A DNA stretch of 64,000 nucleotides from a virus. Positions 27,455 through 27,549 of this stretch are shown here, one piece after another (position 1 is the first letter of the stretch; every line of letters starts with the position of its first letter). The stretch spans positions 120,188 through 184,187 of the IMG/VR virus record IMGVR_UViG_3300029319_000003; one strand, written 5' to 3'. The position numbers and the translations under genes were made by a program. Under the pieces are notes generated by a model. It was not told where the DNA came from and did not search any database. It was given only the letters and a program-made list of their open reading frames with translations.

Positions 27455-27549
27455 TGGTAGGGCGAGTGGGATTCGAACCCACGATCTTGCGCTTATCAGA
27501 CGCTAAACCGGATATAAGCCGGTTGCCTTAACCGCTTGGCTATCGCCCC
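27455..27549 (-). tRNA. Atypical 95-nt tRNA-Ile(UAU) with an extra arm ending in a CUGAUAA loop
   Basis: GGGGCGA/TCGCCCT acceptor, A73, CCA; ACCGG-CTTATAT-CCGGT; extra GCGT-CTGATAA-GCGC hairpin; GTGGG-TTCGAAT-CCCAC. Confidence 0.85.

Follow-up and report, generated by a model that had tools for sequence, protein, structure and literature searches.

AUA is the sole sense codon that bacteria cannot read with a plain tRNA, and either lysidine, which depends on the lysidine synthetase TilS, or an adapted isoleucyl-tRNA synthetase (IleRS) is needed for it. Here we analyzed a 95-nt tRNA-Ile(UAU) gene (27455-27549, minus strand) lying in a window of 64,000 nt, the final 64 kb of a 184,187-bp IMG/VR virus record (IMGVR_UViG_3300029319_000003, positions 120,188 to 184,187). 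In this tRNA, the anticodon arm is followed by a second hairpin whose loop carries GAU, and each of the closest described systems shares a part of the design. In the TilS-independent type I tRNA-Ile(UAU) of Mycoplasma mobile (PMC3575796) and in the short UAU tRNAs of phages, UAU reads AUA without lysidine, as we propose for the window tRNA, and A73, U33 and A37 are present as they are here. These tRNAs are, however, ordinary cloverleaves of 72-81 nt, whereas the window tRNA has an extra GAU-type arm, and in M. mobile the charging problem is solved on the enzyme side, by Arg865 of IleRS (PMC3575796). A canonical tRNA-Ile(GAU), such as that of the phage Blueeyedbeauty, shares the CUGAUAA loop and the C29-G41 pair with the window tRNA, but the latter has a block of 20 nt (the UAU hairpin plus UUA) between nucleotide 26 and the GAU arm; in most members of the family described below, moreover, the GAU loop has A33 and U37.

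Other tRNAs resemble this one in their outline. Class II tRNAs (Leu, Ser, Tyr) and the nematode nev-tRNA(UAU) (PMC3333845) have, like the window tRNA, five arms, the additional hairpin standing between the anticodon arm and the T arm, and nev-tRNA has the same UAU anticodon and accepts leucine. In contrast to them, our family has a type I body, a 7-nt anticodon-like extra loop and an unusually long 3' linker of 5-6 nt, is without Ser, Leu or Tyr anticodons, and occurs in bacteria and phages. The allo-tRNAs (Mukai et al., 2017; PMC5389517) are irregular bacterial and phage tRNAs with long variable arms (V-arms); UAU and GUC belong to their predominant anticodons, and they too occur in Acidobacteria. 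They are defined by a 12-bp acceptor/T branch of 8/4 or 9/3 (PMC5389517), whereas the window tRNA and its family have a 7/5 arrangement and U8-A9.

A five-arm tRNA-Ile with linked UAU and GAU loops

The segment 27455-27549 was called Ile-UAU by ARAGORN and matched the full Rfam tRNA model RF00005 (positions 1-71) with 62.3 bits (gathering threshold 29, E 4e-11) and a 21-nt insertion in the variable region; on the strength of this call and this score, it encodes a real tRNA. Arm 1, ACCGG-CUUAUAU-CCGGU (27507-27523), starts one nucleotide after the D stem and carries the anticodon UAU (27514-27516) in the loop CUUAUAU (RNA positions 32-38), with U33, A37 and U38. The inter-arm linker UUA (27504-27506; 2-6 nt in the family) leads to arm 2, GCGU-CUGAUAA-GCGC (27489-27503), with its loop at 27493-27499 and GAU at 27495-27497. 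The third pair of arm 2 counted from the loop is a C-G (C48-G60 of the window RNA), the equivalent of pair 29-41. A first-pass annotation, made from the letters alone, had described this tRNA, both arms, the second loop and U38, and it agrees with ARAGORN, Rfam and the sequence in every coordinate and letter.

The association of the two loops was analyzed in IMG/VR with scans in both directions. In a scan unbiased with regard to arm 2, which used a UAU arm and a distant T loop and left the intervening sequence unspecified, the second hairpins again had GAU in the centre of a 7-nt loop (CAGAUUA, UAGAUGA, CUGAUUA, UAGAUAA), on stems whose sequences are unrelated among members. The second hairpin was topped by GAU in 65 of the 69 unique long UAU tRNAs but in only 4 of the 175 other long tRNAs found at these loci, and three of these four were five-arm UAU tRNAs mis-called by ARAGORN. 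In the reverse scan, queried with CAGAUUA and a T loop, approximately 98 of 130 unique matches had a clean arm 1 of the form YUUAU(A/G)N, the rest being mostly UAU loops behind a mismatch and the remainder chance matches. In the sample unbiased with regard to arm 1, the arm-1 loop was YUUAU(A/G)N in 71 of 71 unique tRNAs, and seven of the eight bacterial matches to the arm-2 pattern, found in six genomes, also carry UAU. Given the difference between 65/69 and 4/175, the pairing of UAU and GAU loops is far beyond chance. This bears out the first-pass argument that two loops both specifying Ile speak against a coincidence; the conservation check proposed along with it was run, and GAU is kept among the homologues.

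More than 140 unique five-arm UAU tRNAs were collected in IMG/VR, and the window tRNA has all the features by which the family was delimited, namely a YUUAU(A/G)N loop in arm 1, an NNGAUNN second loop, the C-G pair and a 3' linker of 4-6 nt. Among 76 representatives with less than 88% similarity, 91% of the cells of the five-arm structure were paired, with a covariation score of 0.763 compared to 0.189 for shuffled alignments, none of 500 of which reached the observed value. Arm 2 was 96% paired, with compensatory changes in all four pairs, and the acceptor helix (helix 1) also covaries across the family. RNAalifold independently predicted both hairpins with 7-nt loops. In arm 1, U33-U34-A35-U36 is invariant and A37 reaches at least 90% in these representatives, which were partly selected on those very letters. 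Family members have type I D arms whose stems are 4 bp long, and most of them carry A as the discriminator. The five-arm tRNA-Ile(UAU+GAU) is a real variant of tRNA-Ile, and an undescribed one, as no description of a second GAU arm was found in the full-text literature searched.

The remaining parts of the window tRNA are those of an ordinary tRNA. The acceptor 5' strand GGGGCGA (27543-27549) pairs with UCGCCCU (27459-27465) over 7 bp, including a G1.U72 wobble, and is completed by the discriminator A73 at 27458 (RNA position 92) and an encoded CCA (27455-27457). The D arm, GCCA-AGCGGUUA-AGGC (27525-27540), has three pairs, an A13.A22 mismatch and an 8-nt loop with GG. In the alignment with a canonical tRNA-Ile(GAU), the last five bases of the 3' linker AAGAUC (27483-27488) fall on its 5-nt variable loop (44-48), and the T arm, GUGGG-UUCGAAU-CCCAC (27466-27482), is supported by the sequence and the Rfam alignment. 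Membership in the allo-tRNAs was rejected on account of the 7-bp acceptor and 5-bp T stem (7/5), in which an eighth acceptor pair would be U8.C84. A subfamily (loci L149-L151, L161, L188, L210, L220, L239 and L240) is without U8-A9 and without a normal D arm, its D region being rearranged after the acceptor as GAGACU/GGGUGU..UGG..AGUC/ACAC.

Folded as a single sequence with RNAfold, the window tRNA retains the two hairpins, at a minimum free energy of -36 kcal/mol (z = -2.4). For arm 2, RNAfold favours from the window sequence alone an alternative with a bulged U and a GAUA tetraloop, but the 7-nt loop, and not this tetraloop variant, is the form backed by the 76 homologues. Two further contacts were considered and rejected: a pseudoknot in which the GAU loop would pair with AUC or GUC of the 3' linker, since the linkers of many members (AUA, GUU) cannot pair, and kissing of the two loops, which would form at most four pairs in the window tRNA and fewer in members with CAGAUUA. 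The intron mode of ARAGORN found no intron in the window tRNA, and the 20-nt insert lies outside the anticodon loop and forms a conserved, covarying hairpin.

Letters kept and letters lost in the second arm

The third pair from the loop of arm 2 was C-G in 128 of 135 unique sequences, with five or more types of pair on its flanks. By comparison, C-G stands at 29-41 in 92 of 1143 ordinary phage tRNAs (8%, the background), in 26 of 60 canonical phage tRNA-Ile(GAU), and in 42 of the 70 short phage UAU tRNAs among the matches listed (60%; loci L371-L458, mostly with the loop CUUAUAU or CUUAUAA). In arm 1 of the same five-arm molecules, it was found in only 39 of 135. The loop of arm 2 (n = 65) has C or U at 32, A at 33 in 60 sequences (92%), GAU at 34-36 in all, U at 37 in 46 (71%) and A at 38 in 53 (82%), and the commonest loop of the family is CAGAUUA.

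The bacterial Ile identity set comprises A73, C4-G69, U12-A23, G16, U20, U21, C29-G41, G/C34, A35, U36, A37 and A38 (PMC9976931). The window tRNA has A73, and its arm 2 has all the determinants of the anticodon branch (C29-G41, G34, A35, U36, A37, A38); in arm 1, C29-G41, A35, U36 and A37 are present, but 34 and 38 are both U. In most family members, U12-A23 is present as well. Since the letters read by IleRS are largely kept in arm 2, whereas the U33 and the purine 37 needed by the ribosome are mostly lost there, arm 2 has, judged by its letters, the appearance of an identity replica and not of a decoder. Arm 1, in which U33 and A37 are kept, is likely the decoding arm.

We consider it highly probable that arm 2 has been selected for a function tied to these Ile tRNAs. 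The opposite view would take arm 2 for a structural variable arm of a generic kind, useful for stability, for processing or in escaping nucleases, with a GAU loop that is a functionless relic of a tRNA-Ile(GAU) arm. In its favour, long variable arms occur on phage tRNAs for Asn, Asp, Trp, Thr, Met, Pro, Glu and Cys at the same loci, including a 98-nt tRNA-Asp of the window, and arm 2 of the window tRNA is collinear with a canonical Ile(GAU) arm. However, the long arms of these other phage tRNAs end in short GNRA-like loops and not in 7-nt anticodon-like ones, so that GAU would be left unexplained. A relic would also have decayed, whereas GAU and the C-G pair are fixed while column identity falls below 65% elsewhere in arm 2, in the two linkers and throughout the body. 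We therefore regard a generic arm as improbable.

The window tRNA is itself an unusual member. Its CUGAUAA loop is fully canonical (U33, A37, A38) and is followed by a normal 5-nt variable loop, and no second Ile tRNA, tRNA-Ile(GAU) included, was detected by ARAGORN in the tRNA set of the phage window. These features would suit a molecule in which either arm is offered to the ribosome, UAU reading AUA and GAU reading AUC and AUU. Such dual decoding is very improbable, as the window tRNA alone, 1 of 135, has the canonical loop, the A33 and U37 of most others are incompatible with a U-turn anticodon loop, and AUU and AUC are abundant Ile codons already served by the host. The first-pass annotation had put weight on CUGAUAA and its U36-A37-A38 context for N6-threonylcarbamoyladenosine (t6A), which is thus a peculiarity of this member in a family with mostly CAGAUUA. 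With A33 and U37 prevailing, t6A recruitment and decoding by arm 2 are both unlikely as family functions.

From arm 2 through the linker to the end of the T arm, the window tRNA lines up collinearly with the part of the tRNA-Ile(GAU) of Streptomyces phage Blueeyedbeauty (NC_048720.1, 65844-65919) that comprises its anticodon arm, variable loop and T arm, and the two are 90.7% identical over 43 nt. Formally, the window molecule may be written as a tRNA-Ile(GAU) that has received a UAU hairpin of 20 nt behind nucleotide 26. When arm 1 or arm 2 was deleted in silico and the body compared with 1342 phage type I tRNAs, the nearest neighbours were mostly CAU tRNAs along with scattered others. The suggestion that arm 2 is the ancestral anticodon arm comes solely from its collinearity with this one canonical tRNA-Ile(GAU).

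A possible handle for IleRS

A UAU variant was charged by Escherichia coli IleRS at 1.1% of the native efficiency (PMC3575796), which provides a motive for supplying a GAU arm. Our preferred reading, to which we give a probability of about 0.4, is that arm 2 lets the host IleRS accept the tRNA. Arm 1, in which UAU is flanked by U33 and A37, would read the Ile codon AUA, which makes up 9% of the Ile codons of the phage in the window (5.0 per thousand), and the phage would gain an AUA decoder of its own, independent of the host TilS. Arm 2 would be a conserved, non-decoding copy of the tRNA-Ile(GAU) anticodon arm, keeping the letters that IleRS reads (G34, A35, U36, A38 and C29-G41) and mostly shedding U33 and A37, which would serve the ribosome only. 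As UAU is poorly accepted by IleRS, the enzyme may dock on arm 2 instead; both this contact and the resulting charging with Ile are what we infer from the letters of the two arms. The recruitment of IleRS that the first-pass annotation had suggested gains circumstantial support from the near-invariant C-G pair and A38 of arm 2.

The arrangement of the two arms would offer a way of presenting each of them. The junction appears pseudo-symmetric, arm 1 being tied by its 5' end to nucleotide 26 and arm 2 by its 3' end to what resembles a normal 5-nt variable loop, so that, by general tRNA architecture, either arm could stack under the D stem with the other projecting on the variable-loop side. This side is left free by class I synthetases and by the ribosome. 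In a more specific and tentative form, the second arm might be a portable identity tag, the synthetase reading the GAU replica and the ribosome reading UAU, perhaps by a swap of the arms.

Several observations weigh against the IleRS handle. The strongest is that arm 2 is not indispensable for phage UAU tRNAs: in a scan of IMG/VR phages admitting both lengths, plain 72-81-nt UAU tRNAs without a second arm were found at at least 88 loci (at least 70 unique), compared to at least 31 long-form loci. UAU tRNAs, described as rare in the first-pass annotation, are thus not so in phages, where the short ones exceed the five-arm design by about 3:1 among the matches listed. In addition, t6A37 is a strong determinant for E. 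coli IleRS and cannot form in most arm-2 loops, which have U37. Compared with short UAU tRNAs, five-arm tRNAs carry A38 no less often in arm 1, indicating that not all determinants have moved to arm 2, and the window tRNA has G4-C69 and C12-G23 in place of C4-G69 and U12-A23. The variable-arm position usually faces away from class I synthetases, and the geometry of the arm swap is purely our inference. Finally, the family sequences are related to each other, and the counts given above overstate their independence.

The abundance of short UAU tRNAs also means that charging through the UAU arm is evidently workable, and the commonest second loop, CAGAUUA, deviates from a true anticodon loop at 33 and 37. 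Both points would fit a tRNA charged via arm 1 whose arm 2 is selected to engage something else than IleRS, be it a protein of the phage or the host, an enzyme modifying arm 1, a regulator, or an antiviral nuclease that attacks tRNAs and is baited or kept off by the arm. Antiviral tRNases that cut the anticodon arm are widespread, one of them cleaving host tRNA-Ile(CAU) (PMC13056530), and phage tRNAs evolve to escape such enzymes (PMC13056530; PMC10264068). However, no nuclease specific for tRNA-Ile(GAU) was found in the literature searched, which speaks against a decoy, and the decoy of a GAU-specific nuclease would be expected to retain U33 and A37. To our knowledge, no protein except IleRS reads G34-A35-U36 together with C29-G41, and we consider another partner rather unlikely.

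A long extra arm and A73, which is the discriminator of Leu and Tyr tRNAs, would also be expected of a class II tRNA charged by LeuRS, SerRS or TyrRS whatever its anticodon, in which case AUA would be read as another amino acid. V-arm tRNAs with UAU have precedents in nev-tRNA (PMC3333845) and in the allo-tRNAs (PMC5389517). On the other hand, the D arms of the family are of type I with 4-bp stems, the configuration is 7/5 and not 8/4 or 9/3, the G73 of Ser tRNAs is missing, A35 excludes a Tyr identity, and the conservation of GAU and C-G would be left unexplained. We regard charging by one of these enzymes as highly improbable, and assignment of the window tRNA to the class II tRNAs for Ser, which have G73 and a long arm, or for Tyr, with the anticodon GUA, was rejected given A73, A35 and the type I D arms of its family. 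Given these D arms, an assignment to the Leu tRNAs, for which A73 would have to be joined by a Leu-type D-loop tertiary set, is unlikely as well.

Distribution, annotation and genomic context

The five-arm design is common to hundreds of phages and some bacteria. Cultured carriers include the Synechococcus phages SynMITS9220M01 and DSL-LC02, the Levilactobacillus phage ENFP1 and the Lactobacillus phages 3-521 and LpeD, and the gene is labelled tRNA-Ile or left unannotated in their records. The first-pass suggestion that similar tRNAs stand in databases as mis-called introns was not confirmed, the records being plainly tRNA-Ile or unannotated.

In bacteria, the five-arm gene was found mainly within the long tRNA arrays that Acidobacteriota carry, and in Rhodobacteraceae it stands alone. 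The Acidobacteriota contigs (bacterial loci L249-L368, for example L252, L319 and L339) carry 10-38 tRNA genes within 8 kb, in the recurrent order Asn-Met(CAU)-Ile(UAU, five-arm)-Val-Ile(GAU)-Lys-Lys-Arg..., and the five-arm gene was overlooked by ARAGORN in about one third of the arrays. A core gene of Acidobacteriota was rejected, since no more than 3 of the 301 genomes sampled contain the arm-2 pattern and its genes belong to accessory tRNA arrays. A five-arm tRNA-Ile(UAU) standing by itself was observed in several genomes of Ruegeria, Roseovarius and Sulfitobacter (for example L250, 4531-4627, in Ruegeria denitrificans), with a GNAT acetyltransferase, an NDUS4-like gene and open reading frames (ORFs) without a Pfam match as neighbours; no integrase and no phage gene or family was recognised at the Ruegeria locus.

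The window comes from a large tailed phage whose genes include those for baseplate proteins, PhoH and glycosyltransferases; nearly all of its genes are on the minus strand, where six tRNAs and one transfer-messenger RNA (tmRNA) are clustered. The tmRNA (27825-28159, minus strand; 132 bits with Rfam) encodes the tag peptide ANNNTHFDAVALAA and is preceded by a near-consensus promoter, TTGACA-17-TATATT, at 28203-28175. The tRNA-Ile gene lies approximately 275 nt downstream on the same strand and has no strong promoter of its own, and from this layout it may be co-transcribed with the tmRNA. On the plus strand, an ORF of 186 aa (26894-27454) stops one base before the 3' end of the tRNA-Ile gene; since it matches no PHROG and stands on the strand used by few genes, it is probably not a gene. 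The 98-nt tRNA with anticodon GUC (26771-26868, minus strand) has the loop CUGUCUC with U37, an 8-bp variable arm and the Asp determinants G73 and C38, and scores below the gathering threshold of the Rfam tRNA model, by which it was missed.

Whatever the mechanism, a conserved five-arm tRNA of phages and bacterial arrays passes as tRNA-Ile or goes unannotated. If arm 2 does serve IleRS, an aminoacylation determinant would have been moved out of the anticodon, and AUA could be decoded whatever the host, with neither TilS nor an adapted IleRS being needed. A mobile tRNA that combines a decoding anticodon with a copy of the arm preferred by the synthetase would then be a third solution for AUA. 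It would represent a natural uncoupling of tRNA identity from decoding, with a bearing on tRNA evolution, on phage host range and on the engineering of orthogonal tRNAs.
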